Assembly (NCBI GenBank): GCA_964528465.1
Contig: CAZGSN010000667.1
Span: 1 to 43,581, forward strand
Reading direction: 5' to 3'
Length of the DNA: 43,581 bases
Source: an uncultured Candidatus Binatia bacterium
Lineage (GTDB): Bacteria > Desulfobacterota > Binatia > HRBIN30
In this document: in pieces, positions 1,899 to 43,285 of the stretch
How positions within the stretch are numbered: the first letter of the stretch is position 1
Layout: each line of letters starts with the position of its first letter
The notes under the pieces: generated by a model
Database searches by the model: none
Told to the model about the DNA's origin: nothing
Seen by the model: only the letters and a program-made list of their open reading frames with translations
Translations under genes and position numbers: made by a program

Positions 1899-3308
1899 CT
1901 ACTCGGCGCCAACGGCCGTGACACAGGGCGAAGCGTTGCCAATCTTGGCCTCGCCCAAGTTGCCGACGACGACGAGCAGAAGCTGCTCCGGATGCAGGTA
2001 CTGTTGTGCCACGCGCAGAATTTCTTCCTTGGTTATGGCATTGATGCGCTCGGCGTAGCGCTCGGCATAGTCGCTTCCAAGATGGAACAGCTCCACCTGC
2101 CCGAGGAAACCAGCCACCTTGGCGTTGCTGTCGAAGCGTAACGGAAAGCTGCCGGTGAGATACAGCTTGGCGCCTTGAAGTTCTTCGTCGCTTACCGGCT
2201 CGGTCCGTATGCGTGAGAGTTCGGAGCACGCACGCTGAATCGCATCTGCAGCGGATGCATTCTTGGTTTGCAGAACCACTTGAAAGCTGCCCGGAAGCAG
2301 GTTGGCGGAGAAGCTACTACCGACGGAGTACGCCAGACCCGCCTTGGTGCGGATGTTGTCGAGCAGGCGCGAGGTGAAACCACCGCCACCGAGAATGAAG
2401 TTCATGACGTTGAGTGCGTAATAGTCGGGGTTGTCCCGGGCGACGCCTCTATGGCCCAAAATGATGTTGGTTTGTGTCAGAGGCTTGTCGATGAGCACCG
2501 GGGCCGGATTGGTGACAGGCTGCTGCTGCCCGTACTCCCCCGCGGTTGCGCCGGAGCGCCAATTCGCCAAAGCCTGATTCAAACGTGCTTCGATGTCGTT
2601 GGCGTCGACGTCGCCGACGACGGTGATAATCGACGTGTTGGCCCGGTAGTGCTGCTCGAAGAAGGATACCACGTCCCCGCGCTTGAAGCTGCGCACCGCA
2701 GCGATGCTCCCCACGGCAGGGTGGCCATAGGCTTCGCCGCGAAACAGCGTCTGTGCGAAGGCGCGTGCGGCAACGCGTCCGGGTTGATCCTCCTCCGCCG
2801 TCAACGCCGCCAGTGTGGCTTCACGCCGTCGGGTTACCTCGGCCTCCGGGAAGCTCGGCCGCAGAAGCACGTCGGTGAGGAGGTCTAGCCCAGTGTCGAG
2901 GTCCTTGCGCAGCACAGTGACACTCGCCGAGGCATAGTCGAGATCCGCAGAAGTACTGAGCGAGGCACCGATGAAATCCGTCACCTCGCTGATCTGAGCG
3001 GCGCTGCGCTGGCGTGTGCCTTCGGTAAGAAGATCGGCGGTGAAGCTAGCCAGTCCTTCTTTGCCGGCCGGATCGCGACGGCTGCCGGCATCGAGGAATA
3101 TTTGCACGATCACCATCGGCAAGTTGTGCTGCTCTGAAACCACCAGACGCGCCCCGTTGGCGAGTTGCCGGCGGTCGGCACGCGGACCCACCGCGTTTGC
3201 CGCGAGGGGCAGGAGTAGGAGCGACAACAACAGCAGCCAAGTTGTGAGCTTGTCGTAAGAGCGGAATGAGGTGCCGTCACCCCGGCGAGAGCCTCGGTCC
3301 AGGTGCAA
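1899..3308 (-). CDS. M16 (pitrilysin) family peptidase, non-catalytic subunit type; start uncertain
   Basis: The ORF 1899..3515 body has the M16 two-domain layout. The zinc-motif position reads GLASFTADLLTEGT, with no HxxEH. The signal-like h-region is TTWLLLLSLLLLPLAANA. The first ~70 codons of the track ORF cross REP-like repeats (VMPAKAGIQ translation artefact). I therefore place the start at in-frame TTG 3308; ATG 3362 is the alternative. Confidence 0.8.
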   Translation of the reverse strand: MHLDRGSRRGDGTSFRSYDKLTTWLLLLSLLLLPLAANAVGPRADRRQLANGARLVVSEQHNLPMVIVQIFLDAGSRRDPAGKEGLASFTADLLTEGTRQRSAAQISEVTDFIGASLSTSADLDYASASVTVLRKDLDTGLDLLTDVLLRPSFPEAEVTRRREATLAALTAEEDQPGRVAARAFAQTLFRGEAYGHPAVGSIAAVRSFKRGDVVSFFEQHYRANTSIITVVGDVDANDIEARLNQALANWRSGATAGEYGQQQPVTNPAPVLIDKPLTQTNIILGHRGVARDNPDYYALNVMNFILGGGGFTSRLLDNIRTKAGLAYSVGSSFSANLLPGSFQVVLQTKNASAADAIQRACSELSRIRTEPVSDEELQGAKLYLTGSFPLRFDSNAKVAGFLGQVELFHLGSDYAERYAERINAITKEEILRVAQQYLHPEQLLLVVVGNLGEAKIGNASPCVTAVGAE

Positions 3309-3336
3309 TTTGGATAGGAAAATGCTGGCTTTCCAG

Positions 3337-3368
3337 CACTGGATGCCGGCTTTCGCCGGCATGACGCG
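3337..3368. repeat. REP-like hairpin element (cactggATGCCGGC-tttc-GCCGGCATgacgcg)
   Basis: Perfect 8-bp stem (3343-3350 / 3355-3362) with a 4-nt loop. Both strands translate to the classic spurious peptides MPAFAGMT and VMPAKAGIQ, which are typical of intergenic palindromic repeats. It lies between the two M16 genes. Confidence 0.6.
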
Positions 3369-3390
3369 CAAGTGGGCACGTTGTCTTGGA

Positions 3391-3463
3391 GAAAATCGAC
3401 AGTCTCGTTCGCCGGAATTGCCAATGAACACAGAACCCCATTTCAGAGAGAATCGACAGTCTC
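3391..3463. repeat. Two direct copies of a 16-nt motif GA(A/G)AATCGACAGTCTC, spaced 57 nt start-to-start
   Basis: gaaaatcgacagtctc at 3391-3406 and gagaatcgacagtctc at 3448-3463. The core GACAGTC is a GACnGTC palindrome. The pair is intergenic between the M16 genes. Confidence 0.6.
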
Positions 3464-3514
3464 CTTTCAAGGCGGCTGACGTACGTCGGGCGGGTGCAAG
3501 ACGGTTCTGCGACA

Positions 3515-4897
3515 TCAGTGCACCCCTCCCTGCGGCATGCCCACTTTGGGTGGGCGCTTGCTTGGATCGACGGGTAAGGGATCGAGAATGCCAACGGTGC
3601 GATTGTCGGCACGCAGATAGGCTCTGGCGACGCGCTGCACGTCGTCGGCGCTGACGTTACGAATCTTGGGCAGGTACTCGTCGATTTGCTTCCAGTCGCC
3701 GGCGATCTCGAACTGGCCGAGCATCATGCCCTGATAGAAATTGGAGTCCTGCGCCAGCACCGCCTCTGCCTCGATGCCGTTCTTGGCCTTCTGCAGTTCC
3801 TGTTCGGACACGGGATACTCTTGCAGTTGTTGCAGCTCGCGCAGCAACTCCTTCTCCAACGTGGCGACACTCTTGCCGGGTAACGGCTGGCCGTAGACCA
3901 CGAGTTGTCCAGGATCGAGAGAGGTGAAGTCGTAACTAGCGCCGACGTCGAGGGCGATGCGCTTCTCGTAGACGAGGTGTTTATGCAGGCGTGCACTCTT
4001 GCCGCCGCTCAGTACCGAAGCCAGTACTTCGAGCGCCGGTGCGTCTTGGCTCTTTAGGTTCGGCGTATGGTGGGCCAGAGCCAAGAACGGAAGTTGTGCC
4101 GGGCGCCGCAGGGTAACGCGACGTTCGCCTTGCTGCACGGGCTCGCTGGCCCGCACCTGTGGCGGCAACGGTCCGTTCTCGATGGCGCCGAAACGGGTCT
4201 CGATATCGGCGAGCAACGCGTCGCTGGAGAAATCACCAACCACAATCAGAAAGGCATTGGCTGGGGTGTAGTGACGGCGGTAGTACTCCAGGGCATCGTC
4301 GCGCGTTGCTTGGCGCAGGTCGCTCATCCAACCGACGATGGGCCAGCCATACGGATGCGCCGTGTAGGCCGCGGCGCTGATGGTCTCGAAGAGTTCGGAG
4401 ACAGGATTGTCTTCGGTCCGCAAGCGCCGCTCCTCGATTACCACGTGATGCTCCGGGGCAAACTGCTCTTCCGCGAAGCTCAGGTTGCGCATGCGGTCGG
4501 CCTCCAGCGTCAGCACGACGCCGACGCGATCACTGGCGATTTGCGCGAAGTAGGTAGTGTTGTCGTTGTTGGTGAAGGCGTTGTCGTTGCCGCCGTTGCG
4601 CTGGATGATCTTGGAGTACTCTTCCGGTCCGGTCGTAGGGGTTCCCTTGAACATCAAATGCTCGAGGAGATGCGAGAGGCCGGTCTTGCCCAGCTCTTCG
4701 TTGCGCGAGCCCACCCGGTACCAAACCTGCACCACCGCAACGGGAGCCTTGTGGTCTTCGAGCAGCAGCACCTTCATGCCGTTGGCCAGGGTCTTTTCTA
4801 CGACCCGCTCCTGGTAGGACAAGGCAGCGTCGGCGCTGGAAGCAAGCAGTGAATTAACGAGAACAAGGACGGTCACGACAAGCAAACGAGACAACAT
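3515..4897 (-). CDS. M16 (pitrilysin) family zinc peptidase, catalytic subunit type
   Basis: Inverted zinc motif HxxEH is present in GLSHLLEHLMFKGT, followed by NAFTNNDNTTYF. I chose the start at ATG 4897 (cat at 4895-4897), which gives the signal peptide MLSRLLVVTVLVLVNSLLASSADA. The longer track ORF (to 5038) adds a Cys/Arg-rich non-protein-like leader. Confidence 0.9.
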   Translation of the reverse strand: MLSRLLVVTVLVLVNSLLASSADAALSYQERVVEKTLANGMKVLLLEDHKAPVAVVQVWYRVGSRNEELGKTGLSHLLEHLMFKGTPTTGPEEYSKIIQRNGGNDNAFTNNDNTTYFAQIASDRVGVVLTLEADRMRNLSFAEEQFAPEHHVVIEERRLRTEDNPVSELFETISAAAYTAHPYGWPIVGWMSDLRQATRDDALEYYRRHYTPANAFLIVVGDFSSDALLADIETRFGAIENGPLPPQVRASEPVQQGERRVTLRRPAQLPFLALAHHTPNLKSQDAPALEVLASVLSGGKSARLHKHLVYEKRIALDVGASYDFTSLDPGQLVVYGQPLPGKSVATLEKELLRELQQLQEYPVSEQELQKAKNGIEAEAVLAQDSNFYQGMMLGQFEIAGDWKQIDEYLPKIRNVSADDVQRVARAYLRADNRTVGILDPLPVDPSKRPPKVGMPQGGVH

Positions 4898-5261
4898 GGC
4901 GGCGCTGGTTAACAGCGGGCCGGAGGGAGCACAACGCAAGCGCGGAGCCGTGCCGCGGTGTCGGCAGTTGCCGTGCGCCTTTGATCTCTTGTGAAAAGTT
5001 AGCTTTGGCGATGAGATCGCTGACTGACTTAGCGTCATCCACGTGAATGCGCGTGGTGAAGAACTTCTCTAGGTGGCCCATTACGAGGAGTGGAATCAGC
5101 ATGAGCAAGACGGTGGTCGCGCCACTGGTCACATAGTGCCGGATGCCGAGAGTTGCGTGAGGAGGCAGGCCGATAGCGATGAAATACGACACCTCGTACG
5201 CATAGCCCCATATACCCATCGGGATTGCGAGCAAAAGAAGAGAGAGTGGTAGGCGCTTCAT
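4854..5261 (-). CDS. Hypothetical small membrane protein (2 predicted TM helices)
   Basis: Internal ATG 5261 of ORF 4854..5615 gives MKRLPLSLLLLAIPMGIWGYAYEVSYFIAIGL...TTVLLMLIPLLVMGHLEKFF. The 3' tail overlaps the M16 start by 44 nt and looks less protein-like. Confidence 0.35.
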   Translation of the reverse strand: MKRLPLSLLLLAIPMGIWGYAYEVSYFIAIGLPPHATLGIRHYVTSGATTVLLMLIPLLVMGHLEKFFTTRIHVDDAKSVSDLIAKANFSQEIKGARQLPTPRHGSALALCSLRPAVNQRRHVVSFACRDRPCSR

Positions 5262-5801: not shown

Positions 5802-6122
5802 TCATGGTGCGAAGATCTCGCCCAACACCGCAAGCAGAGAATCACCCGTGCGCTTGTCAATCTGTCCCAGTCTGCGAATCAGGCGGGCTTTGTCGACGGC
5901 GCGTAACTGGTCAAGGACGACCTGACCTTCCTTGCCACGGAATCGGCAGTGGATACGCGAGGGGTATGCACTGCCCTTCGTCGTCATCGGTGCCACAATG
6001 ACGGTGCCGATATTTCGGTTCATTTCATCCGGTGAGACGACGACCGATGGGCGGGTCTTGCGAATCTCGCGCCCGACGGTCGGATCAAGGCTGACCATAT
6101 AGACCTCAAACCGCTTCACCAT
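5802..6122 (-). CDS. mazF: MazF/PemK-family endoribonuclease toxin (type II TA)
   Basis: VKRFEVYMVSLDPTVGREIRKTRPSVVVSPDEMN and TVIVAPMTTKG fit the PemK/MazF signature. ATG at 6122 (cat 6120-6122) overlaps the mazE stop (6116-6118). The track ORF starts at 6143. Confidence 0.85.
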   Translation of the reverse strand: MVKRFEVYMVSLDPTVGREIRKTRPSVVVSPDEMNRNIGTVIVAPMTTKGSAYPSRIHCRFRGKEGQVVLDQLRAVDKARLIRRLGQIDKRTGDSLLAVLGEIFAP

Positions 6123-6370
6123 TGCCACTCGCTCTCGTCCCACCGCGAGGTAGAGGTGAGATCGCCATCGAGCAAGCGATCATCCCCCGCCAATGCCATT
6201 TTACGGAAGGCGACGTCCCAGCCCTCGCGCGGCCGCGATGCCGGGCGAATGACCAGACGGTTTCCCTCAGCCTCAATCGTGACTTCCTCGCCAAGACCCG
6301 TCTGCTGCAGAAGCAACTTCGGAATCCGGACACCACGAGAGTTTCCGATGCGAACGATGCGCGTCTTCAT
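6116..6370 (-). CDS. mazE: MazE/AbrB (SpoVT-AbrB fold) antitoxin
   Basis: MKTRIVRIGNSRGVRIPKLLLQQTGLGEEVTIEAEGNRLVIRP is a canonical SpoVT/AbrB swapped-hairpin motif. ATG at 6370 (cat 6368-6370). The longer track ORF (to 6568) adds an Arg/Pro-rich leader overlapping the methyltransferase 3' end. Confidence 0.8.
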   Translation of the reverse strand: MKTRIVRIGNSRGVRIPKLLLQQTGLGEEVTIEAEGNRLVIRPASRPREGWDVAFRKMALAGDDRLLDGDLTSTSRWDESEWQW

Positions 6371-6557
6371 AGTGACTACATCGTAGCCACATTCGAATGT
6401 CGGACGCAATCGCCCCGCCGCCGGACGACGGCTATCAGCGGCGCGCGGCCGCCGCATGGCGTATCCACTTGTGAAGCGACTCATGCCGGTGGGTGACCTG
6501 TGCTTGTGCAGAGGCTCCCCAGCGGACGACGCAGTTGGCTTCCTACCACCCGGTGCC

Positions 6558-7310
6558 CTAGCCGGCACGGATTCCGGCGATGGCGTAGGCGATGTTGCCG
6601 ACGGCGCGGCATTCGGCGACGTGGTCGGTGGTGGCGGTGATGAGTACGCGCACGTCTTCTACCGTACGCAGGGCGGCAACCTCGTCGCGCCGGTGCAAGA
6701 AACGCAGGTAGTGGTCGCCCCAGCGTTGGTTGAGCACCAGTGTGTTGAGGTAGAGGCGGCCGCGCGGCAGCAACAGGCTACGCACGGCTCGTAGCATTGC
6801 TCCACCATCCTCGAACAAGTGCAGCATGCCCATCGACAGCACCGTCGCGAAGCTTGCGGCTTGGAAGGGGAGATCGTGCAAGTCGGCCTGAATCAGAACC
6901 ACGTTGGCAGGAATGCTTCCGTTGCCTTGCTGAAGTCGTGCCCGCGCGCGGCGCAGCATCTCGAGGGAGTGATCCATCGCAATCACCGGCCGCTGCGCTT
7001 GCCGATACACCTCCGCGGTAAACAGCATCGAGCCGCAACCGGCGTCGAGATACGGGCCGCTTGTAGCCGATCGCAAGGCCGCGTCGGCGAAGGCCGTGTA
7101 GTCGCGAAGATCGGACCCCCACATCCAGCGGTTGTAAAGTCGACTGCCGATGAGGCGATCGTAAATTCCCGCCAGGCGGTCGTAGTGCTGCGCCTCCTCG
7201 GTCTCAGGCAATGCCGAATACAGCCCGGGCTCTACCTCGCGCAGCTCTCTCCCCTTCAGGAGCCTCTGTGTGGCAATCTCGTAAGCCGAAGTGCTGTGCT
7301 CGCTTGCCAA
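6558..7310 (-). CDS. Class I SAM-dependent methyltransferase
   Basis: 250 aa. Motif I is YLDAGCGSMLF. It is followed by VVLIQADLHDLPF and FATVLSMGMLHLFEDG (Methyltransf_11/25-like). The TTG start (7308-7310) directly abuts the TAG stop (7311-7313) of the upstream GT-C/NHL gene. Confidence 0.8.
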   Translation of the reverse strand: MASEHSTSAYEIATQRLLKGRELREVEPGLYSALPETEEAQHYDRLAGIYDRLIGSRLYNRWMWGSDLRDYTAFADAALRSATSGPYLDAGCGSMLFTAEVYRQAQRPVIAMDHSLEMLRRARARLQQGNGSIPANVVLIQADLHDLPFQAASFATVLSMGMLHLFEDGGAMLRAVRSLLLPRGRLYLNTLVLNQRWGDHYLRFLHRRDEVAALRTVEDVRVLITATTDHVAECRAVGNIAYAIAGIRAG

Positions 7311-31534: not shown

Positions 31535-31601
31535 CGCGTTCCTGGTCGAGCCGGCGTTGCTTCATTGCCGGTCGCTTAGGGATCGGTGTCTGCGAACAGT
31601 C

Positions 31602-31629
31602 CCCTCTCCCACATTTTCGCGGGGGAGGG
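31602..31629. repeat. REP-like hairpin CCCTCTCCC-n10-GGGGGAGGG between convergent genes
   Basis: 9-bp stem (one G-U) with loop acattttcgc. It translates to the spurious peptide SPLPHFRGGGRGEG. It has the same CCTCTCCC...GGGAGAGG core as the 14998-15042 hairpin. Confidence 0.5.
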
Positions 31630-31775
31630 CGGGGTGAAGGTTTCCCGTCCGGCCAGTGGCTATGCGCTGACCTGTACGCGATTCCCGCGATGACGATTGC
31701 GCAGGCGATCACGACCGAGACGGTCACCAACTGCCCGGGCCCCCAAACGCCTTGCGCTGGCGGCCCGTCGTCGAC

Positions 31776-34700
31776 CTAGAACGCTAGAGGGAAGACCAGG
31801 TTGACCAAGAAGAAGTGGCGGTTGTAGGGGTCGGCCCAGAAGCCACCGGCGCTGGTGGTCAGCACGGCAATCTCTTCGATGGGGAAGTTGAGCGTCCCTT
31901 CGATGCCACCGGCGATACGGCTTCCCTCGGCGTCTTCGAAGAAGTCCGAGTCGACACCCGAGATCCACTGGCCTCCCACTTTGCCCGTCACCAAGAAAGT
32001 GGCGTCATCCAATGTGTCCGGGAAGAACGGGCCAGTGAAATCGAGGCGCAGCAAAGCCTGCACAAACGCGTCGGGGCTGAAATAGCCGCCGCCGGTGCGG
32101 CGCTCGTTGACGGCGGCGATGAGGTCCGCATCGGAGCTGGAAGAGCCACGCACGGGCTCGCTCAAATCCTTGTCGTAGTGGAAGAAAGCAAGCTCGACGC
32201 CAGGGCGAATCTGGTTGTCGTAGTTGCGCAGCTCAAATGTCCGCCCTACTCCGAGGAAGCCGTCAAACTTCTCGTTGTCCGGGATGCGAATGCCTTGCAA
32301 GGTGCTGTAAGCGAGTTCGAGCACACCATCGATTAGGGCTGGCGTGGTGAAGCCGATGCGTCCGCCGAAGCGGTCTTGAATCACCTTACCGATGAAGGTG
32401 TCGCTGTTGCCGGAGACCAGCTTCTGCCCGCGGAAGCTCAGCATCGATTCCATTACGGGTTGGCGCTCGTAGAACGGAGTCAGCGTCAACCATGGAGCTG
32501 GCTTGAGATCGAGTTGAGCAAAGCCTGTGAGATAGGGGCGACGCGGGAAGCCCCACGGGGTTCCGCCAACACCACCACTCAGGACAATGGCGTCTGTCCC
32601 CAGCGCCAAGCCGTTCAATGTCGCCATGCCGGAGACCCCGGCGTCGCGCTTGTCGCCGTTGTCGACCAAGGTTGGTTCGGCAGTCAGCCGGAAGCGCGTA
32701 TTGAGCGCCGCAGGCAGATCAACGAACATTGGAAAGCGATAAATCGCAAACTGGTCGGCCCGCCAGTCGGCCACGGCACTGAGGAAGTCGTAGCGAAAGC
32801 CAAGCCCCACTTTGACGGCTTGCTTTCTCGCCAAGTCACGAGCCAAGCGCTCCGCGCGCAGGCGTGCTTCCGGGCTCAAGGCTTTGACCGGCGGCGCCTC
32901 CACCTCTTCTGGGATCGTCTCGTACTGAATGGCCGAAAGATCGGAATAGCGCGGCACACCCTGTGTCGATGGATCATGCCTGCGTTCCCATTCCAGTCGC
33001 ACCGGCGGCAGCGAGTCTTCATAAACAACCGGAGCCGGAACCTGCGAGCGCGCTTGACGGCGTGCGGGCGTCGCCAAGCGTGGCACGGGCGTGGTCTCGA
33101 TGCGCGGTTCTTGCCAACCCCGTGGTGTGGGGACGCGCGTCGGCACCGCGGTAGCTTTCCCGCTACGCCCCTTGGCACGCACATCCCGCATGATGCGTTC
33201 GAAGCTTGGGAGGTCTTCCGCGATCTGAGCTTCCGCAACATCCCTCTCACGGTGGGCAGCCCAAGCCCGTAGAGCCTCAACAGCCCCGCCAGAGAACATC
33301 GCCGCTGCGGCTGGCGCAGCATCGTTCATGGAGTCCGTGGCGGCGGCGGCAAGCGGCTGCGAGGTCAACCGCGCCGTGGCGCGACTTCCCTGCCAGCGCC
33401 GTGGTGGCAGTGCATCGACCGGAGCCGGCTTGGCGCGTAATGTCCCTTGCGGCAACTTGAGCGGTGGCAGAATCGAATCGACGACAGCGCCACTGCTGGC
33501 GTAGCCCGAGCCCGGCTGCGGCGGCAGGCCGTAGACACCCACCCCGCCGCGACTCCCCGCCTCCTCGAGAATTGCCGAAGCATCTCCATCGCGCCCCATG
33601 TCGTGGTACATTTCAGCCAAAGCAAGGCCCAGCTCAGGATCTTTACTGGCCTCGTACTGGTCTTCCAAAATATCGAGTGCCTCACGCGTGTTACCGCTGC
33701 CGCGCAGGGCGTACGCCAGGCCTAGGCGCACGTCCCCATCTTCCGGCGCCAAGGCCTGTGCGCGAGAGAAGAACTGCTCGGCCTCCACGTACTGCTTGGT
33801 TTGCAGATAGAGGAAGCCAATGGATTTCAACGTGTCCACGTCGTTCGGGTCGCTGCGATAGTCTTGCGCCAAGAGAAGGTAGACCTGATCCAAGCGCCCC
33901 TCGCGCGTCAGCCGCTCGCGGTCGATCCGGTCCTGCGCGCGGCGCACGTCGCGAGCCAGCTCCGCCGCCGTTTGCGCTCCGAGTGTACGCTGGTCATTCG
34001 CAATGGCCTGGCGTGCATCGGCATAGCGACCGAGCTTCGAAAGTGCGCGAATACGCGCTGCCTGTAGGCGTGCGGAAGAACGGTTCAATGCCAAACCCTG
34101 CTCGGCATAGGTCAGGGCAAGCGTGTCGGCACCAGTTTCCAAGGTGACTTCCGAGAGCCCTGCCCACACATCGGGATCGCGCGGATTGCGCTCGCGCAAC
34201 TGCTCCATGAGATCGCGCGCATCGGCAAAGCGTCCGGCTTCGATGAGCTGACGGGCGTATTCCATATCGCGATGGAAGGCGATGCGGTTCCAGGTTTCCG
34301 CCGACACCTCGTACCCAGGGATGGTATCCAATCGGCGATAGGTGGCCTCAGCAGCTTGCCAGTCCCCCACGCCTTCGTAGGCTCCGGCGATCCCTTGCAA
34401 AGAGCCCGGATCATCGGGATTGGCAGCAAGCACGGCACGGTGCGTGTCGATGGCATCCTGGAACTGCCCCTGCTTGGAATAGACACCGGCAATCACCTTG
34501 AGGGAATCCGCGTCTTCCGGATCCAGGGCCAGAGCCTCGCGCGCGGCAAAGAACGCTTCGTTCGTGCGTCCGGAATCAAGTAAGGCGCCAGCCTGGGCTC
34601 GGCGCAGATTGGCACGCTCGCGATTCGCCGCCTCCGGGTGCGCGGCGCTGTAAGCGGTGAGTGCCTGTTCGGCTTCGCTGTAACGCTTCATCGCCGTCAG

Positions 34701-37700
34701 GGCGCGCACCTGCCCCGCATACGCCTCCGCCGAGGCATCCGGGGCCTCGGCCAGGCGGCGGTAGCTGCTCAAGGCCAACGAATGGTCCCCGACCAACTCT
34801 GCGGCTCGCGCCTCGTCGTAGGCGAAATCTCCGCGATAAGGGTCGAGTTCGCGCCCGCGCTTGGCAAGTTGCAAGGCAGAGCGCGCCGACATAGTGGAAG
34901 GATCTTCCCGCCACTGGGCTAGCCGTTCTTGGATCGATAAGGTCTCGGAAATCTTCTGTCCTTGCGCCGCATCGGGTAGTTGACGGGCATAGACACGCGC
35001 CCGCTCCCAATCCTGGCCAGCCAAGGCAATCTGCGCACGCATCGACAGAGCCTCGGCGTTATTCGGGTCGCGCTCGAGAACCTGCTCAATCGCAGCATCC
35101 GCCGCCTCCAGTTCCTGTGCCGAAAGATGGCGACCAGCGATGGCCAGCAAGAGGTTCGTATTACCACGCAGCGCCTCGGGATTACTTGGGTACTCGTCGA
35201 GAACCGAGTCGTACAGTGCCCGCGCCTGTTCGAGATCTCCATTCGAAAAATAGGCACCGGCAAGCGCATTGGTGACGAATGCATCATGCGGCCGGCGAGC
35301 CCGGGCAGCCTCATACGCGGCAATGGCGAGGCCGTACTCCTGTTGCTGCGAGTACAATCCGCCCAGGGCCAACTGTGCGTTGACGTTCTCTGGATCTTGA
35401 TCGAGGGCCTGGTGCACGAGGTGGATGGCCTCGTCGAGTTTCCCCGCCCGTTGCAGCGCCGCCGCTTCGGCCAAGGTGTAGCCGACATCGCGCGCACGGC
35501 CTGGCTCGGCAGGAAGCTCGGGGGCTGGTGGCGACGACTCAACCACAACCGCGGGGGGAGCCTTCTCCTTGGGCACAGACTTCCCCGCTTTTTGCTTACG
35601 GCCTTTGCTCGGCTTCTCGGTGACATCGACGACCTTGGCAACCTCGATGGCCGCCTCGCTAGGCGCGTTTGCCATCGCCGTTGGTCCTTCGCGTAGCTTG
35701 CGATAGGCGCTCAGAGCGCGATCGCTTTCTCCCAAGCGCTCGAGGGCCTGGGCACGCACCAGCATCAGATCGTCGCGGCGCGGGGCAACGCTGAGACCAC
35801 GTTCCGCTAGCGACAGCACCTCGCGAGGGTTGGCGTTGTCCGGATCATTGCGCCACGGTTGCAATTGTCGCTCGACATCGACGAGCTGACGCAAGCGATT
35901 CTTTTCGTCGCCGTTGGGCAAGCGTTCGAGCGCAAGTTGCGCCGATTCGTAATCGCCCGAGGTCATGCTCATTTCGATCAAGCCCTTTACCGACTGAGCG
36001 CTCCCCCCTTTCACCTGCAGAGCTTGAGCAACGTAACGCCGCGTAGCGTCCTGCTCACCCCGGCCGAGAGCATCGGATGCCATGGTGGCAAGCACGTCGA
36101 CTTGCCCATTGGCAGCGTCCACATCGTCGGGGTCGGCTTTGCCGGCCGCTTGAAAGGCATGCAAGGCATCAGGGAGTTGGCGTGCGGCGAAATAAGAACC
36201 GGCCAAGCCGTTCCACAGTTTGGCATCGTTGGGGGCCAGCTTGAGTGCGTTGCGATACGAGTCTACCGATTCCTTGTAGTTGCCGGCGCGCTTGTGCTCC
36301 TCGGCTTCGACCGACAGCAAGGCCACGCGCACAGCGTTCTCTTCTCCTGGGAACAAGCGCTGAAATTCTTCGAAGCCGGCGCGCGCATTCTTCTCGTCGC
36401 CTTGGGCAATATAGACCCGCACGGGACCAAGATACGCTTCCCGGAGGTCGGGCTGCTGCGAACGTAGGGCCATGTAGAGAGGCAACGCCTCGTTGCCTCG
36501 GCCACTCCGTTCCAACAACTGCGCCAGGCGCAGGCGGTAATCGACGCGTTCCGGAGCTTGGGCAACGGCTTTGCGCAGCAAGGCTTCGCTGCTTTCGTCA
36601 CTAGCGCGTTCGATCTTGGTTTCGAGCTGCTGCGACTTGCGCTGCTGGGCGATTTCCTTGCGCAGGCGGTCGTAGTCGCGGCGGGCTCGTCGTTTTAGGC
36701 TCGGCAGTAACGACTCGGCGCGGCTGTATTCGCCACGTGCGGCATAAACCGCGGCCAAGCCTTTGGTTGCCTCCAGGTGCTGCGGTTTGAGTTTGAGAGC
36801 AGCCTGGTAGTCTTGCTCCGCCGCCTCCGGGTTACCTTGGGCAAAAGCAATACCGCCGCGTAGAGCCAACAGGTCGGCACGTTGGTCGACGAGTGTACCC
36901 GCCTGCTCGAGGGTGGCTGCGGCTGCGTCTAAATTCCCCGCCTTCATTTGCGCCGAAGCCAACGCCGCTACCGCGGCGGCCGTCTTGTTGGCCGACGCAT
37001 CCAACGTAACCGGCGCAGGCTTGGGTGCGATAAGCTTGGGGAGATTTTCCGGCACAACGACTGGAGCCGCGGGCTGCAACGGCAAAGGGGAAACGGCTAC
37101 TGCCGCGGCCTTCTTGCCTGCTTGTCCTTGTTTCTTGACCAGGGACCCCTGGATATCGGCATACTCCTTCGCCAAAGCTGGGTCAGAGCTCAGCTCCAAG
37201 GCACGCTCATATTCTGGGAGCGCTGCCTCGCGGCGGCCACGATTCACTTCGAGGCGAGCAATCGTCACGGCTAGGTCCGGACGCCGCACCGACATCTCGC
37301 GCAATCGCTGAATGACCCGATCTACATCGTCGTAGTTGCGGGTCATGTTGGCTGTGCGTCCAAGCCCAGCCAGAGCATCGGCATCGTCGGGATGCGCCTC
37401 GACGTAGCTCTTGAAATGGCCATAGGCAGCAGCGTGCTTGCCGCCGGCTTCTTCGGCCAAGGCGACAAGCTTTAGATCTTCGCCTTGCAGCGCCACACCA
37501 CCAGCCAGGGCTCGTGCAAAGTGATCCTGTGCTTCCTTGGACTGACCGTTCCAGGCAAGGGAGCGTGCATACAGCAGGCGCCGATCGGCGTCTTGGGGGC
37601 GTGCTTGTACGATTTCCGCCAGTTGCGGGATGGCTTCGCGAATACGGCTTTGGCTGATGAGCAGGTCTGCCAACTGACTACGTCGCGCCACGTCATCCGG

Positions 37701-38126
37701 CCGCTGCTCCAAGTAAGCCTTCAGGATTTCGGTGGCACGCGGCCACCCTTCTTTGGATTGCGAGAGTAGGTCGACGAGGCGCCGCTGGGCGTGAACATCC
37801 GGTTGGCGTTTGAGAGCGGCCTCGAACGCAGCGACTGCCCGTTCGCGCTCGCCCAACTGCATGTATGCTTCGCCGAGGCCGCTGTAAGACGAGGCCGGTG
37901 CGTTGGGTTGAAGCGTGAGTTTTTCGTAGGCATCGCGCGCTTCGCGCCATCTACCTGACTGCAAGTAGAAACGTGCTACGGCCGCCTCGTCTTCAGCGCG
38001 TGATGTCGCCTGCGCCGACGCAGCGTACGTCCACAGTGGGGAGCAAACCAGCGCTAGGGAAAGGGAGAGAGCCTTGATGGCGCGCATGCGACTATCCATC
38101 CGTTCGAAAATTGAACTCACCGCCAT
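31776..38126 (-). CDS. Giant (~2116 aa) TPR-repeat protein with C-terminal BcsC-like outer-membrane beta-barrel (exopolysaccharide-export-porin-like)
   Basis: Signal peptide MAVSSIFERMDSRMRAIKALSLSLALVCSPLWTYAASAQA. ATG 38126 is preceded by aatGGAGGgaggtg (SD, 6-nt spacer). TPR-like helical repeats span about nt 33560-38040. A Pro/Ala/Arg-rich linker spans about 32820-33560. The C-terminal ~347 aa has alternating beta-strand patterning, the motif GGGYFSPDAF (nt 32073-32093; compare BcsC GGYFSPQ) and a terminal ...LVNLVFPLAF, an aromatic OMP C-terminus. Confidence 0.8.
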   Translation of the reverse strand: MAVSSIFERMDSRMRAIKALSLSLALVCSPLWTYAASAQATSRAEDEAAVARFYLQSGRWREARDAYEKLTLQPNAPASSYSGLGEAYMQLGERERAVAAFEAALKRQPDVHAQRRLVDLLSQSKEGWPRATEILKAYLEQRPDDVARRSQLADLLISQSRIREAIPQLAEIVQARPQDADRRLLYARSLAWNGQSKEAQDHFARALAGGVALQGEDLKLVALAEEAGGKHAAAYGHFKSYVEAHPDDADALAGLGRTANMTRNYDDVDRVIQRLREMSVRRPDLAVTIARLEVNRGRREAALPEYERALELSSDPALAKEYADIQGSLVKKQGQAGKKAAAVAVSPLPLQPAAPVVVPENLPKLIAPKPAPVTLDASANKTAAAVAALASAQMKAGNLDAAAATLEQAGTLVDQRADLLALRGGIAFAQGNPEAAEQDYQAALKLKPQHLEATKGLAAVYAARGEYSRAESLLPSLKRRARRDYDRLRKEIAQQRKSQQLETKIERASDESSEALLRKAVAQAPERVDYRLRLAQLLERSGRGNEALPLYMALRSQQPDLREAYLGPVRVYIAQGDEKNARAGFEEFQRLFPGEENAVRVALLSVEAEEHKRAGNYKESVDSYRNALKLAPNDAKLWNGLAGSYFAARQLPDALHAFQAAGKADPDDVDAANGQVDVLATMASDALGRGEQDATRRYVAQALQVKGGSAQSVKGLIEMSMTSGDYESAQLALERLPNGDEKNRLRQLVDVERQLQPWRNDPDNANPREVLSLAERGLSVAPRRDDLMLVRAQALERLGESDRALSAYRKLREGPTAMANAPSEAAIEVAKVVDVTEKPSKGRKQKAGKSVPKEKAPPAVVVESSPPAPELPAEPGRARDVGYTLAEAAALQRAGKLDEAIHLVHQALDQDPENVNAQLALGGLYSQQQEYGLAIAAYEAARARRPHDAFVTNALAGAYFSNGDLEQARALYDSVLDEYPSNPEALRGNTNLLLAIAGRHLSAQELEAADAAIEQVLERDPNNAEALSMRAQIALAGQDWERARVYARQLPDAAQGQKISETLSIQERLAQWREDPSTMSARSALQLAKRGRELDPYRGDFAYDEARAAELVGDHSLALSSYRRLAEAPDASAEAYAGQVRALTAMKRYSEAEQALTAYSAAHPEAANRERANLRRAQAGALLDSGRTNEAFFAAREALALDPEDADSLKVIAGVYSKQGQFQDAIDTHRAVLAANPDDPGSLQGIAGAYEGVGDWQAAEATYRRLDTIPGYEVSAETWNRIAFHRDMEYARQLIEAGRFADARDLMEQLRERNPRDPDVWAGLSEVTLETGADTLALTYAEQGLALNRSSARLQAARIRALSKLGRYADARQAIANDQRTLGAQTAAELARDVRRAQDRIDRERLTREGRLDQVYLLLAQDYRSDPNDVDTLKSIGFLYLQTKQYVEAEQFFSRAQALAPEDGDVRLGLAYALRGSGNTREALDILEDQYEASKDPELGLALAEMYHDMGRDGDASAILEEAGSRGGVGVYGLPPQPGSGYASSGAVVDSILPPLKLPQGTLRAKPAPVDALPPRRWQGSRATARLTSQPLAAAATDSMNDAAPAAAAMFSGGAVEALRAWAAHRERDVAEAQIAEDLPSFERIMRDVRAKGRSGKATAVPTRVPTPRGWQEPRIETTPVPRLATPARRQARSQVPAPVVYEDSLPPVRLEWERRHDPSTQGVPRYSDLSAIQYETIPEEVEAPPVKALSPEARLRAERLARDLARKQAVKVGLGFRYDFLSAVADWRADQFAIYRFPMFVDLPAALNTRFRLTAEPTLVDNGDKRDAGVSGMATLNGLALGTDAIVLSGGVGGTPWGFPRRPYLTGFAQLDLKPAPWLTLTPFYERQPVMESMLSFRGQKLVSGNSDTFIGKVIQDRFGGRIGFTTPALIDGVLELAYSTLQGIRIPDNEKFDGFLGVGRTFELRNYDNQIRPGVELAFFHYDKDLSEPVRGSSSSDADLIAAVNERRTGGGYFSPDAFVQALLRLDFTGPFFPDTLDDATFLVTGKVGGQWISGVDSDFFEDAEGSRIAGGIEGTLNFPIEEIAVLTTSAGGFWADPYNRHFFLVNLVFPLAF

Positions 38127-38138
38127 CACCTCCCTCCA

Positions 38139-38192: not shown

Positions 38193-38657
38193 CTACTGGT
38201 CCAGGTTCGGGACACTCACGCTCAGGCTGGCGAGATCCGCAAACGCGGACTGGCGCGCGCGTGACGTACCGTCCACCTTGATTTCGATCACAAGCTGCTT
38301 GCGACCCGGCTCGGTGAGATTGGCCGAGACCGTAAAGAAGCCACGTGCGTTGGTATACGGAATCGTCGCGGGGATAGTACCATCAATGGTCTGGTTCGAC
38401 GTCGCATCGCCCATCTGGCCGCGAAAGGCTGCCCCGAGGGTACCTTCAATAGACACAACCACCTGATGATTGGTGCTACGCGTCGGCGTTGGGTTCTGGT
38501 TGGGCGGCGTTACGCTAGGTGTGGGAGAGACGGTGAAGGGTGGCGTTGGAGTGGGCGGATTATAGCCGTCGTCGTCATCCTCATCCGGCCCACAGCCCGG
38601 CATGAACGCACCGAAGATCAAGAGAATTAAGGAGAGATACAGCCTCATCATCCACAC
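38193..38657 (-). CDS. Small lipoprotein with acidic and Pro/Thr-rich linker and ~95-aa beta-rich domain
   Basis: MWMMRLYLSLILLIFGAFMPGCGPDEDDDDGYNPPTPTPPFTVSPTPSVTPP has a signal peptide and a lipobox-like FMPGC (Cys22). Alternative ATG starts are at 38651 and 38648. It lies directly upstream of, and co-oriented with, the TPR/BcsC-like gene. Confidence 0.7.
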   Translation of the reverse strand: MWMMRLYLSLILLIFGAFMPGCGPDEDDDDGYNPPTPTPPFTVSPTPSVTPPNQNPTPTRSTNHQVVVSIEGTLGAAFRGQMGDATSNQTIDGTIPATIPYTNARGFFTVSANLTEPGRKQLVIEIKVDGTSRARQSAFADLASLSVSVPNLDQ

Positions 38658-38965: not shown

Positions 38966-41900
38966 GTGCGATGGCCGTGCACCCCGATGTCGTATCCCTG
39001 CTCTCTTATCCGCGACTGCGTTGAGGTGCGACGGCACCCTACGGTGGTCCGCCTAAGTGATCTCGAGAGCGAGAGTTCGCATTGGCTCGGGGAAACCTTC
39101 GTTCTCACCAAAGAGGTGCAAGCGCACCTCGCCGCCCTACAGCATTGCCTCCGTCAACCTCATGGCAGTGGCGTGTTCCTCATCGGCCACTACGGCTCGG
39201 GGAAATCGCACCTGCTGGCTTATCTGGCCTTGCAACTACGTGGGCAATGGGTGCCGGAACCGCCACACGTGGTTCCTATCTCTCTGGTGAATTTTGGTTC
39301 GACCAACCGCCTCGAGGACATTGTTGCCGGTGCCCTCGGCGTTGCTGTCGGCGGTGGCGACAGACGGCCGGCTTGGGAGGCCATCCTGGCGCAACACGCA
39401 CGTGGCCTCGTGCTCCTCTTCGACGAACTCTCGGAATTCCTGCGCGCCAAGCCGGATGCGCGAGGATTGAGCGAGGATGTTCGCTTCCTGCAGTTCCTTG
39501 GCGAGTATGCGCAAGATCATCGCTTGTGGATCGTGGCCGCCATGCAGGAAGAGATCGAGCACACCGGCGCCCTCGACTTTGAACTCTACCGCAAGATCAA
39601 GGACCGCTACCCGCTTCGCCTCTTGCTCACACCAGCCCACGTGCAAGCCCTGGTCGCCGACAGCATTTTGATCAAGAAGCCTGTGTATGCCGGGGCGGTG
39701 CAGGAGCTGTGTCGCGACCTGAAGCCCCTGGCTTCCGAAACCAGCATGGATTTCGAAACCCTGCAGCGCGTCTATCCGCTGCACCCGGCGACACTGAACA
39801 TGCTGGAGGAGATCCGCGATCGCTTTTCCCAGGCCCGCGGGGTGATCGATTTTACAGTCACCCGCCTGCTCGGGGATCCTGCCCGCGGCGTCGATGCCTT
39901 CCTCGATCAACCCTTTGGAAGCCTGCTCACACCAGACACCATCGTCGATCACTTCCAAGACCTGTTCGAAGTGCAGCCGGAGTTCCTACCGCTCGCGCAG
40001 CAGCTCCTGCCCTGGTACGCCAATCATCTCGACGAGCTCTTCGATCGTCCCGCCCTGCGCGACTTGGCCCGCCGTATCCTAAAGCTACTTCTCTTGGTGC
40101 ATCTGTCGCCGGCTCGCGAAGCGCTGCGCCCCAACGAAGCCTTGGGTTGGTTGATGCTGATGGCAACGCGTCTGGAACCGAGCCGCAATCGCGCCGTGAT
40201 CGAGCGCGTGCTGACGACGCTGGCAGATCGCGGGCGCTATGTGGTTCGCCAGGGCGACGGCTACCGTCTCGATTTGCGCGACGACAGCGCCGCAACTCTG
40301 GAGCGCTTGCTAGCACGGGAGGTTGCTGCTCTCGAAGGCCAGGGCACGCTCGTGCTCGAGCGCTTGGTTCCCTTGCTGCCGGCCACTGCCTTCAACCCCT
40401 TTCACGGCACACGCAACCGCTGGCAGCATCGCCGCGTCACCTGGTACTTCCACGAACGCCGCTTTGCGCTTTGGGTCGGTGACGAGAACCCGGAAGTGCC
40501 GCGGGATCAACTGGGAATTTGCTTGCGCCTGCCGTGGGGCAACCGCGACCCCGCTCCCGGTTGCTTCACTGTCTTACCTGCCGCCATGGAAGTCACGCCG
40601 GCACTGGTCGAGCTGGCCGCCCTGCAGTATTTGCGCGAACAACCGGCAAGCCCCGAACTCGCACGCCGTGTCGCCCAGCGCCTCGACAGCCGCCGCACGC
40701 TGTGGGAGCAGGCAGTGCGTACGGCTTGGCAATCGGCACAACTACTCACACCCGATGCCGCCAGCGAACCGGCACCACGACTCGATCCACAAAGCGGATT
40801 CGAAGCCTGGCTCGATCAGGTGGCACTCACGGCACTGCGCCGCACCTACCCGGCCTTTGAACGCTTCGCACCGCAGCATGGTCCGCTGCCCAAAGAAGCG
40901 TGGCTGCGCTTCCTGCGCTTCGCGGTGAAGGAGGACCTTGGCTCGCCGCTTGCCGACGAGTACGTGCGCTTGATTCGCGAAGCCTACCTGGTGCCGATGG
41001 GCCTGCTGCGCCGCAAGGGACAAGAGTACACCACACCCGCCAATCTCGATCGCCATGAGCTGGTGACGCTGCTGGCGCCGCTCCTGCAACGTGAAGCCAA
41101 CCCACGCAGCGTGCACGAGCACCTGTCTGCGCCCATCTATGGCTTGGTGCCAGATCAGATCAATTTGCTGTTAGTGTTCCTGCTCCTGCAGGGCGAGATC
41201 GACATTCTCAAGGATCGGCGTTCGTACAGAGAGACCTTCGAGCTGCTGCCCAACCCGCTTCAGTACGATCGCATCGTCGCCGGCACGGCACTCAGCAGCG
41301 AGGCGCTGCGCGATCTCGAGCACCTATGCCGCGGCCTAGGTTTGGCTGTGCCATCGCAATGGAGCGCGCTGACGCAACGGCGCACGGCGCACCAGTTGAA
41401 GGAGTTGGGACGCCGTGAGACCGAGCACCAGTTGCCCTTGCTCCGACAACTCGTCGACAGCGAGCACACGGCACTGGCCAAGCGCCTGCAGGCACACATC
41501 GACATGTGGGCGAGCCTCGAGGCGGGTAAGGATGCGCTGCACGGCTTGCAACAGTTCCTGTTCAACATCGGCACCGCTTCGGCGTTCCTGGCCGATCGTG
41601 AGGCGCTACGCGAGCTGCCTGAGCGTATTCCCCGCTTGCTTGCGCAAGCGCAGCGCCTGACCCACGTGCTCCAGCATCCCATCGTGCGCCGACTACAGCC
41701 AGTCGACTCCCAGGCGCTCGGCGCGAGCCCAGGGCTCGACGATCTGCCGGGCTTCGAACGCTGGCTGCAACGTGCGGATCGCTTGTACGAAGCGCACAAA
41801 GCCTCGTATCGCGAACGGCACGAAGCTTGGTGGAACTCGGTTCCGAAATCCGAGCCATGGCAGTGCCCGCCGTTAGCGCGCAGCCGGCACCTCGATCTCA

Positions 41901-43285
41901 GCGAGCTGGCAACCCAGGAAGAGAGCTGCCTTCGTGAGGCTGAGCAAGCGCGTTGTAGCGGGCTTGTGGATTTGAATTTTCAAGCGCAATGCCGCTGTGG
42001 CTTCGATGGGGAAACGGCACCCGTCGCTGGAATCTTGGAACGTCTCGCTGCTCTGCGCCAGCAAATCGAGGAGCGCTTGCGCCTGTTCTTTGCGCAGGGC
42101 CAGGTCAAGGCACGCATCCGCCAGTGGCAACAGCAAGGGATCGAACTCAACCCAGCCACCCTGGCCTACCTCGACGGCAAACAACCGTGGCCGCAGGTCG
42201 AAGATCTTGCCGGCTTCGATGACTTTCTCGCCGGCGCCGACCTGGCTGCCGAGGTCGACGTCACGCCCATCCTCGAGTTGCTTGCCAGACGCACCTGGCG
42301 CCCCGACGATTTGCTGCGCGAGTTGCAGCGCTTGTTCCTCGCCACCAATGCCCCGCGTTTGCGCTTTGCAAGCCGGCCGGCGGGCCAGGTTCCGGACTCT
42401 GTCCTTGCCTGGTGCGCCGAGCAGTGCCTGCGCTCGGCGAGCCCCCTGCCCGGAGACTTCACCCGCGAAGAGCTGCGCCGGCTTGGCGGTTTGTTGCGTC
42501 CCGAATGGGTGAGCCCCAAAGCCTTACATCGGCTAGAGAAGCTCGGGCTTGAGGAGGCCGGTGTCGATCAGATTCTAACCTGGTTGCTTAGCGGTCAGGT
42601 GGCCGCGCCGGAGCAAGTAGAGGACAGCCAATCCGTCGTGGCCACTGCCATCGAGTTGTTGCACCCGACACCCGCCACAGGGCCACGGCAGCTCGGACAA
42701 GTCTGCGCCCGTCAATATCGCGATAGCCGACGCTTCCAGCGCATCGCACCCCAACGTTGGCTGCAGCACCTGGACGCCCTGGCGAAGGCTCCGCTTGCTG
42801 GCTTGCCGGACCTGACTACAGCGCTGCGCCAACATGAGGCAGCTCAGTGGCTCTTGGTGGATGCTCTTGGCCTCCCCCTCTTCGAGCTGGCAACCCAGCT
42901 CCTGCACGCCACGCTCAGCGAGTGGAGCCCGGCACAGATTTCCTTCGCGCAACGTTCCACCACGAACACCACCACTGACGGCTGCTACCGCGAACTCTTG
43001 GATGCCAATCTGGTGCACGAGATCACCAAGCTCGATGTTGTCGATACCTTACTGCACGCCGAGGCGACACCGTTCGCCGAGCTACAAGCTTTGGTGAGCA
43101 CGCGTCTCGCCGCCCCTTTACAACGCGTGGCTGGCCGCCTCGATCCGACACGCCCCCTGCTGGTATTTGCCGACCACGGCTTCCGCCTCAGCCCCAACGG
43201 ACGTCATTACGTCCACGGCGGCGCCTCGACCCTGGAACGTGTCGTCCCCCTGTGGCACTTCGCCGCACGCACGCGTCAGGGCTGA
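38966..43285 (+). CDS. 1439-aa fusion: BrxC/DUF6079-like P-loop ATPase N-terminus + PglZ-like (alkaline-phosphatase-fold) C-terminal domain
   Basis: The N-terminal pattern VVRLSDLESESSHWLGETFVLTKEVQAHL is followed by Walker A GHYGSGKSH (nt 39185-39211) and Walker B LVLLFDELSEF (DE at 39422-39427). The C-terminal ~150 aa (nt ~42840-43282) reads WLLVDALGLPLF...RSTTNTTTDGCYRELL...LLVFADHGFRLSPNGRHYVHGGASTLERVVPLW. This follows the PglZ pattern (vvDalr..l / T-rich nucleophile segment / sDHGf / yaHGG.S..E..vP). The GTG start at 38966 is uncertain; ATG 38987 is the alternative. Confidence 0.75.
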   Translation: MRWPCTPMSYPCSLIRDCVEVRRHPTVVRLSDLESESSHWLGETFVLTKEVQAHLAALQHCLRQPHGSGVFLIGHYGSGKSHLLAYLALQLRGQWVPEPPHVVPISLVNFGSTNRLEDIVAGALGVAVGGGDRRPAWEAILAQHARGLVLLFDELSEFLRAKPDARGLSEDVRFLQFLGEYAQDHRLWIVAAMQEEIEHTGALDFELYRKIKDRYPLRLLLTPAHVQALVADSILIKKPVYAGAVQELCRDLKPLASETSMDFETLQRVYPLHPATLNMLEEIRDRFSQARGVIDFTVTRLLGDPARGVDAFLDQPFGSLLTPDTIVDHFQDLFEVQPEFLPLAQQLLPWYANHLDELFDRPALRDLARRILKLLLLVHLSPAREALRPNEALGWLMLMATRLEPSRNRAVIERVLTTLADRGRYVVRQGDGYRLDLRDDSAATLERLLAREVAALEGQGTLVLERLVPLLPATAFNPFHGTRNRWQHRRVTWYFHERRFALWVGDENPEVPRDQLGICLRLPWGNRDPAPGCFTVLPAAMEVTPALVELAALQYLREQPASPELARRVAQRLDSRRTLWEQAVRTAWQSAQLLTPDAASEPAPRLDPQSGFEAWLDQVALTALRRTYPAFERFAPQHGPLPKEAWLRFLRFAVKEDLGSPLADEYVRLIREAYLVPMGLLRRKGQEYTTPANLDRHELVTLLAPLLQREANPRSVHEHLSAPIYGLVPDQINLLLVFLLLQGEIDILKDRRSYRETFELLPNPLQYDRIVAGTALSSEALRDLEHLCRGLGLAVPSQWSALTQRRTAHQLKELGRRETEHQLPLLRQLVDSEHTALAKRLQAHIDMWASLEAGKDALHGLQQFLFNIGTASAFLADREALRELPERIPRLLAQAQRLTHVLQHPIVRRLQPVDSQALGASPGLDDLPGFERWLQRADRLYEAHKASYRERHEAWWNSVPKSEPWQCPPLARSRHLDLSELATQEESCLREAEQARCSGLVDLNFQAQCRCGFDGETAPVAGILERLAALRQQIEERLRLFFAQGQVKARIRQWQQQGIELNPATLAYLDGKQPWPQVEDLAGFDDFLAGADLAAEVDVTPILELLARRTWRPDDLLRELQRLFLATNAPRLRFASRPAGQVPDSVLAWCAEQCLRSASPLPGDFTREELRRLGGLLRPEWVSPKALHRLEKLGLEEAGVDQILTWLLSGQVAAPEQVEDSQSVVATAIELLHPTPATGPRQLGQVCARQYRDSRRFQRIAPQRWLQHLDALAKAPLAGLPDLTTALRQHEAAQWLLVDALGLPLFELATQLLHATLSEWSPAQISFAQRSTTNTTTDGCYRELLDANLVHEITKLDVVDTLLHAEATPFAELQALVSTRLAAPLQRVAGRLDPTRPLLVFADHGFRLSPNGRHYVHGGASTLERVVPLWHFAARTRQG

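Follow-up and report, generated by a model that had tools for sequence, protein, structure and literature searches.

A giant, divergent BcsC from an uncultured Candidatus Binatia bacterium, set apart on its contig from the cellulose synthase genes found beside its relatives

The 43,581-nucleotide contig CAZGSN010000667.1 of an uncultured Candidatus Binatia bacterium (assembly GCA_964528465.1), analysed here over its whole length and referred to as the window, carries an open reading frame (ORF) for a very large protein that an original prediction, made from the sequence alone, described as a BcsC-like tetratricopeptide repeat (TPR)/β-barrel protein with no cognate synthase nearby. The locus raises the question of what this protein is and to which polysaccharide system it belongs. 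We find that it is a giant, divergent member of a BcsC subfamily known so far from a handful of lineages, which are Binatia wherever an organism is named. We further consider it likely, at a probability of about 0.75, that it is the BcsC of a Binatia-type cellulose system whose cognate BcsA-BcsB most likely has its genes elsewhere in the genome and acts in trans.

The frame opens with a GTG and runs for 2117 codons, while the ATG at 38126 gives the 2116-residue NCBI-derived database protein P0001, to which the product is identical. The product was described as of nearly double normal length, and it is 1.8 times as long as E. coli BcsC. Its features are:

31776–38129, minus strand: bcsC-like ORF, 2117 codons plus stop, uninterrupted
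38007–38087, minus strand: Sec-type signal peptide MRAIKALSLSLALVCSPLWTYAASAQA, residues 15–41, by inspection
37140–37997, minus strand: TPR solenoid segment A, residues 45–330, about 8 hairpins by eye
36990–37139, minus strand: linker 1, Ala/Pro/Val/Lys-rich, poorly conserved and partly deleted in the 1792-residue ortholog
35688–36989, minus strand: TPR solenoid segment B, residues 381–814, 26 predicted helices
35493–35687, minus strand: linker 2, disordered, residues 815–879, predicted local distance difference test (pLDDT) score ~30
33552–35492, minus strand: TPR solenoid segment C, residues 880–1526, 37 predicted helices
35664–36233, minus strand: TPR super-module copy 1, residues 633–822
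34722–35291, minus strand: TPR super-module copy 2, residues 947–1136
32880–33551, minus strand: Ala/Arg/Pro-rich spacer, residues 1527–1750, ~225 residues, from the last TPR (~1526) to the pre-barrel helix (1751)
32823–32879, minus strand: helix directly before the barrel, residues 1751–1769, from AlphaFold
31779–32816, minus strand: 16-strand BcsC-type β-barrel, residues 1772–2117, motif GGGYFSP, C-terminal Phe

An AlphaFold model of the last 487 residues, built from a 16-sequence alignment, comprises 16 strands with pLDDT values mostly of 80–90; the original prediction had expected 16 to 18. When this model was compared with the PDB using Foldseek, ranks 1–3 were all E. coli BcsC (9B8A, 9B8H and 6TZK, E 1.5e-17 to 1.6e-16), followed by PgaA (4Y25, 3.8e-9), PelB (9H80, 1.8e-8) and then general porins; none of the 50 structural matches listed was AlgE. 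A sequence search of the PDB matched only BcsC structures, 6TZK (E 5e-5) and 9B8A. In Pfam, BCSC_C (PF05420) matches residues 1840–2064 with 51.5 bits against a cut-off of 23.5 (E=1.2e-13), and many TPR families match the ORF, TPR_19 in 17 stretches. The motif GGYxSP is invariant in 16 of 16 aligned BcsC barrels, canonical ones included. The peptides singled out at the start were all recovered: GGGYFSPDAF sits at residue 2013, FPLAF closes the chain and the duplicated segments are at 734/807 and 1048/1121. The description as a BcsC-like TPR/β-barrel protein is borne out by the PF05420 and TPR matches and the barrel model.

Two other porin families were considered and rejected. PelB ranks fifth structurally, with an E-value nine orders of magnitude weaker than that of BcsC, and no pel genes occur in any locus, be it the window or the relatives' loci. 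For PgaA, the profile scores lie under the cut-offs (TIGR03939, 101.6 versus 366.65 and on TPR stretches only; NF007468, 19.7 versus 1043), no pgaBCD genes are present in any locus and PgaC-type neighbours are absent from the window and from the relatives' loci.

Only five other full-length relatives, 89, 71, 68, 73 and 38% identical, were found among 5.8 billion clustered proteins. A barrel-only HMMER scan of 1.84 billion representatives likewise gave five strong clusters and then a gap to canonical BcsC at E values of at least 1e-7. The relatives come from uncultured Candidatus Binatia genomes wherever the organism is named. Six relative lineages, with orthologs 38–73% identical to the window protein, have readable downstream DNA:

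L001/L002/L003/L008 (P0005, 1792 residues): small protein (159 residues), bcsC, V4R (199 residues), 255-residue protein, BcsA (740 residues), BcsB (752 residues)
L005 (P0003, 2084 residues): Era, small protein (154 residues), bcsC, V4R, 253-residue protein, BcsA, BcsB
L007 (P0004, 2095 residues): order opens likewise; contig ends before or within bcsA
L011 (metagenome contig): order opens likewise; contig ends before or within bcsA
L004 (P0006): order kept, with TPR protein (2024 residues) and barrel (403 residues) as separate genes
L015 (P0014, 2507 residues): order kept, with TPR region and barrel fused

The operon order in the relatives is therefore lipoprotein, bcsC, V4R protein, Pro-rich protein, bcsA, bcsB, and linkage of the ortholog to bcsA-bcsB is seen in four lineages, the L007 and L011 contigs stopping before or within bcsA. 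The synthase subunits are readily recognized: L005 BcsA passes the TIGR03030 CelA cut-off (746.7 versus 699.1 bits) and L005 BcsB matches PF03170 at 1e-92. A metagenome scan with a V4R profile returned two loci, one with the bcsC-V4R order and one too short for context, and neither is a porin-less operon. The absence of a synthase beside the window gene is a property of the contig and not of the gene family, since the relatives carry bcsAB downstream. The statement that no cognate synthase lies nearby accordingly stands for the 43.6-kb contig and fails for the family, in which bcsA-bcsB are linked to the gene.

These loci hold several further features. A GH8 cellulase gene lies just past BcsB on the opposite strand in the L001/L002/L003/L008 lineage only. 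A conserved non-coding block of ~150 nucleotides lies 5′ of the V4R gene in L005 (16255–16662), L001, L007 and L011 and is absent from the window and L006; this bcsC-V4R intergenic block may act as an internal promoter for the synthase half of the operon or give rise to its leader RNA. The clade BcsA proteins (L005 18090–20309, L001 16982–19204, P0026–P0037) have no match to Pfam PilZ (PF07238) and still pass the CelA model; nearly all more distant BcsA proteins in the same search do match PilZ, and the L004 BcsA does so weakly (E 0.0016). The cyclic-di-GMP-binding domain of the clade BcsA may be divergent or lost. In L004 (10001–17314), from a Binatia genome, the 2024-residue TPR ORF and the 403-residue barrel ORF lie 28 nucleotides apart, the split falling inside the disordered spacer, while sister lineages of L004 (2140 and 2507 residues) keep TPR and barrel fused; the split is either a real gene fission or an assembly frameshift. 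This deeper branch also has Wza-like (Poly_export/SLBB), Wzc-like (GNVR) and AAA ATPase genes directly after bcsB (L004 23527–26075, L015 14743–18254) and a small Frankia_peptide-family gene between bcsC and the V4R-like gene, and from its gene content the cluster of L004 and L015 would carry two outer-membrane export routes.

In the window, what remains of this arrangement is the upstream part, with the following elements:

38193–38657, minus strand: small lipoprotein, ~152 residues, with lipobox LIFGAFMPG-C, a Pro/Thr linker and a C-terminal domain of ~90 residues
38713–38750, minus strand: conserved non-coding block CTTGACTCATTTGGTCTAATGATATTGAGTGGCGGCGG, common to the window, L005, L001 and L006
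38775–38920: imperfect palindrome/hairpin of 146 nucleotides, at the upstream edge of the conserved unit
31597–31636: G+C-rich stem-loop between the convergent bcsC and GT-C stop codons

Every relative has the small lipoprotein gene directly 5′ of bcsC, with identities that range from 93 to 37%, and the gene product has no match in Pfam, NCBIfam or the PDB. We consider it a probable accessory of the outer-membrane module, with a role that may be comparable, by analogy only, to that of PelC in the PelBC exporter. The block upstream, which reads CTTGACTCA-N16-TGAGTGGCGG with an ACTCA/TGAGT inverted repeat, sits 56–93 nucleotides 5′ of the annotated GTG of the lipoprotein gene, and we infer it to be a candidate promoter/operator of the lipoprotein-bcsC transcript. 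The 146-nucleotide palindrome is 85% identical to its counterpart in L005 (9216–9358), while coding DNA is only ~71% identical, and it has a folding energy of -82 kcal/mol (z -3.85); it may terminate transcription of the upstream gene or have a regulatory role. Neither the window nor the conserved upstream region matched an RNA family in Rfam beyond a single hit at chance level.

The conserved unit, consisting of the hairpin, the promoter-like block, the lipoprotein gene and bcsC to ~130 nucleotides past its stop codon, is intact in the window. Homology to the closest relative, L006, stops at ~31646. On the downstream side a PMT_2/PA14 GT-C gene of the opposite strand converges on bcsC, and upstream, past the hairpin, lies a divergent gene for a BrxC/PglY-like ATPase; both flanks are foreign to the usual bcsC context of the clade. 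We searched the window by tblastn with three BcsA and one BcsB of the relatives and ran Pfam on all large ORFs, and found no GT2, BcsA or BcsB coding sequence. Because the lipoprotein-bcsC unit is intact and both of its flanks are replaced, the cognate BcsA-BcsB most likely lies elsewhere in the genome, and we attribute the separation to rearrangement, an assembly artefact being less likely.

The closest relative adds to this picture. The sequencing run that holds L006, SRR24472965, also holds a 6.4-kb bcsA-bcsB contig, L014, with a partial Pro-rich gene, a BcsA 84% identical to that of L005 and BcsB. A repetitive extragenic palindrome (REP)-like hairpin (CCGGCGAAAGCCGG beside GGAATGACG) ends the L006 bcsC contig (7270–7295) and, inverted, opens the L014 bcsA contig (1–30), and it may be why the assembly of the relative breaks there. 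The hairpin CCGGCGAAAGCCGG was rejected as a source of the window breakpoints, there being none near bcsC in the window.

The window bcsC is under strong purifying selection, with no sign of relaxed constraint. The window and L006 are 83% identical at the nucleotide and 89–90% at the amino-acid level. The ratio of non-synonymous to synonymous substitution rates (dN/dS) for bcsC against L006 is 0.071 overall, with dS 0.80, and ranges from 0.04 to 0.07 across the structured domains; the linkers have values of 0.19 and 0.40, linker 2 being the fastest-evolving part at 0.40. In a relative-rate test with P0003 or P0004 as outgroup, 51 (or 49) amino-acid changes were unique to the window and 52 to L006.

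Several points weigh against the reading that the protein is the BcsC of a cellulose system with its synthase elsewhere. The protein scores 127.3 bits with NF008520, the NCBIfam equivalog model of E. coli-type BcsC, and does not reach its cut-off of 858; this model is specific to enterobacterial-type BcsC, and the window protein therefore is a divergent subfamily. The V4R, Pro-rich protein, BcsA, BcsB, GH8 and Era of the relatives all lack a tblastn match in the 43.6-kb window. A collection of 15 billion proteins contains no NCBI-derived full-length BcsA at the identity expected for this genome, and the only BcsA sequences in it that are more than 66% identical to that of L005 are a Logan-only sequence (84%) and the L001 type (80%); the lack of a closely matching NCBI BcsA may mean that the bin is incomplete, that the gene is present in fragments or that it is truly absent. 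Finally, homology and synteny are the sole basis on which the protein is predicted to function as a cellulose exporter.

The design of the protein departs from that of the canonical exporter mainly in its periplasmic part. AlphaFold modelled residues 381–1531 as wholly helical with a mean pLDDT of 83.6, and the modelled helices together with the ~8 hairpins seen by eye in residues 45–330 give an estimated total of ~39 TPR-like hairpins. A home-made iterative hidden Markov model found just 13 TPRs and had collapsed to a 22-residue motif; the AlphaFold helix counts were preferred. The large internal TPR duplication noted at the outset lies well beyond chance: residues 633–822 and 947–1136 align over 190 residues without a gap at 29% identity (E ~1e-24), and weaker echoes extend into residues 1178–1330 and 1407–1497. 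The duplicated super-module is ~195 residues long, with a repeat period of 291–314 residues across the clade, and its copy number varies:

P0005, 1792 residues: one copy
Window protein and P0002–P0004, 2084–2131 residues: two copies
P0006, 2024 residues, split form: three copies
P0014, 2507 residues: three copies
P0016, 2140 residues: two copies, plus a third weak match

In the 1792-residue P0005, linker 1 is largely missing, as is the beginning of segment B. A 1166-residue protein, P0013, was rejected as a normal-length form; it comes from a 3.7-kb contig and is probably truncated. Read from these sequences, the extra length is super-module copy-number expansion plus the spacer, and the "double length" appears as one state of a clade-wide polymorphism that ranges from 1792 to 2507 residues.

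The spacer between the TPR region and the barrel is largely disordered yet conserved, and is not junk. It had been put at about 250 Pro/Ala/Arg-rich residues and measures ~225, and residues 1527–1791 contain 16% Ala, 12% Arg and 11% Pro. The portion that was modelled, residues 1654–1748, has pLDDT values below 50. Its motifs ILPPLKLPQG, NDAAP, LPSFERIMRDVR and VRLEWERRHDPSTQGVPRY are kept clade-wide, down to relatives 38% identical overall, and dN/dS over the spacer interval is 0.074 against L006. At the other end of the protein, the Cys of the signal peptide MRAIKALSLSLALVCSPLWTYAASAQA is not conserved in an alignment of the orthologs; the peptide therefore has no lipobox and the BcsC-like protein itself is no lipoprotein. 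The mature protein probably starts after this peptide.

With E. coli BcsC (6TZK, 9B8A, 9B8H; PF05420) the window protein shares a signal peptide, a periplasmic TPR solenoid, a 16-strand C-terminal barrel and the GGYFSP motif, as well as, in its relatives, the linkage to bcsA/bcsB. The E. coli protein has 19 TPRs over ~150 Å and a 16-strand barrel, is needed for cellulose export and binds BcsB via TPR 1 (PMC11379886). The window protein is longer (2117 versus 1157 residues) and has ~39 TPR-like hairpins versus 19 (PMC11379886); unlike in E. coli, its solenoid is split into three segments by disordered linkers, a conserved disordered stretch of ~225 residues separates the TPRs from the barrel, and the barrels are only ~18% identical. 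The operons differ as well, with the Binatia bcsC coming first after a dedicated small lipoprotein gene, with V4R and Pro-rich genes in the clade, and with no bcsQ, bcsR, bcsE, bcsF or bcsG seen. PelB of P. aeruginosa resembles the window protein in being a TPR-barrel exopolysaccharide porin with a small outer-membrane lipoprotein, PelC (PelBC, 9H80); for the window lipoprotein, however, similarity could be detected neither to PelC nor to any solved structure. PgaA (4Y25; TIGR03939) likewise combines TPRs and a 16-strand barrel in a porin for a synthase-dependent polysaccharide. In alginate export, AlgK and AlgE follow the same logic, with a TPR scaffold, an outer-membrane barrel and a lipoprotein component, but the work is divided between two proteins and the AlgE barrel has 18 strands.

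If the protein works as E. coli BcsC does (PMC11379886), its N-terminal TPRs would dock on periplasmic BcsB, the TPR solenoid would guide the nascent glucan across the periplasm and the barrel would conduct it through the outer membrane. The extra TPR modules might, speculatively, recruit other factors or give reach and flexibility. Equally speculatively, ~39 hairpins in three tethered segments together with a spacer of ~225 residues would far exceed the canonical periplasm span.

Among the alternatives, it is improbable, in our estimate, that the lipoprotein-BcsC pair is a free-standing export module uncoupled from bcsAB, with the doubled, segmented solenoid and the disordered spacer forming a distinct envelope-spanning design; the segmented design could be a flexible tethered conduit to a synthase elsewhere, or could serve more than one polysaccharide system. 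We likewise regard as unlikely an artefact of assembly or binning, by which one or both edges of the unit would be chimeric joins in the contig, with the canonical V4R-bcsA-bcsB lying downstream in the real genome. The window is the whole contig of a probable metagenome-assembled genome, the independent L006 assembly (7.3 kb) breaks ~100 nucleotides past each end of the homology, so that the edges appear hard to assemble, and the window and L006 diverge after only ~130 nucleotides beyond the stop codon. However, two separate chimeric joins would be required, tetranucleotide composition is homogeneous over the joins (r 0.90–0.95, a weak test between related strains), bcsC and the gene downstream converge on a well-formed intergenic region with a stem-loop, and the contig contains no piece of the V4R gene, the Pro-rich gene, bcsA or bcsB.

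Very unlikely, in our view, is the reading suggested by the original prediction, in which the porin, uncoupled from cellulose, would export or anchor a glycan that the nearby PMT_2/DUF2298 enzymes make. In its favour, five large GT-C-type proteins are encoded within 25 kb of sequence, with no GT2 synthase in the contig and no matching NCBI BcsA seen. Against this, the two adjacent GT-C genes lie on the opposite strand and are convergent with the bcsC-like gene, and the GT-C gene nearest to bcsC has no close relative among 185,579 species-representative genomes, so that there is no conserved pairing. No GT-C genes lie near bcsC in the relatives, and the window genes besides bcsC and the small lipoprotein, the GT-C genes included, have no homologue in any of the relatives' loci. 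In addition, the barrel and TPR regions evolve at the same rate as those of L006, whose run holds a bcsAB contig, and GT-C enzymes, which pass sugars from lipid carriers on to acceptors, are not known to feed TPR-porins. Of the two partners originally named for the porin, the small lipoprotein is conserved in all relatives and so holds up, whereas the GT-C proteins occur in none of the relatives' loci; the idea of an orphan porin with GT-C partners finds no GT39/DUF2298 synteny in the relatives, which have bcsAB instead. A decaying remnant, in which the operon was disrupted and bcsC and its lipoprotein gene are on their way to becoming pseudogenes, would fit the absence of the operon partners from the contig and of a matching NCBI BcsA, but is given very little weight in view of a frame open over 6.35 kb, dN/dS of ~0.07 in the structured domains, no excess of amino-acid change on the window branch (51 versus 52) and a native promoter-like block that is kept. 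We therefore retain the reading of the protein as the BcsC of a Binatia-type cellulose system that most likely acts with a BcsA-BcsB encoded elsewhere.

Between 7311 and 31534, clustered genes encode GT-C-type membrane glycosyltransferases of very large size that carry fused extracytoplasmic domains: PMT_2 with NHL (900 residues), PMT_2 with DUF2298 and NHL (1598 residues), DUF2298 (714 residues), PMT_2 (1146 residues) and PMT_2 with PA14 (820 residues). Among them are genes for a 1726-residue protein with Laminin_G_3 (two stretches) and NHL and for a SEC-C-motif protein. On the other side, at 38966–43285 on the plus strand, a 1439-residue DUF6079/AAA protein matches BrxC/PglY of BREX-type phage defence (PADLOC, E 1e-17), which suggests from its sequence that the bcsC unit is bordered upstream by a variable or defence region. 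Two M16 (insulinase-type) peptidase genes in tandem, an ORF with a MazE-like antitoxin domain and a gene for a class I S-adenosylmethionine-dependent methyltransferase, at 1899–5038 and 6116–7310, are unrelated to bcsC.

A full-text literature search returned no paper naming both Binatota and cellulose synthase, and our analysis describes a cellulose synthase (bcs) system for this uncultured class, the Binatia. To the known bcs genes the clade adds conserved, uncharacterised accessory genes for the small lipoprotein, the V4R protein and the Pro-rich protein. For the scanning of genomes, the locus provides a case in which an apparent orphan export porin is explicable through the synteny of its relatives. 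With respect to the family, the periplasmic scaffold of BcsC can double via TPR super-module copy number and carry a long, conserved disordered spacer, and a doubled scaffold with such a spacer is hard to square with a simple model of 19 TPRs over 150 Å.

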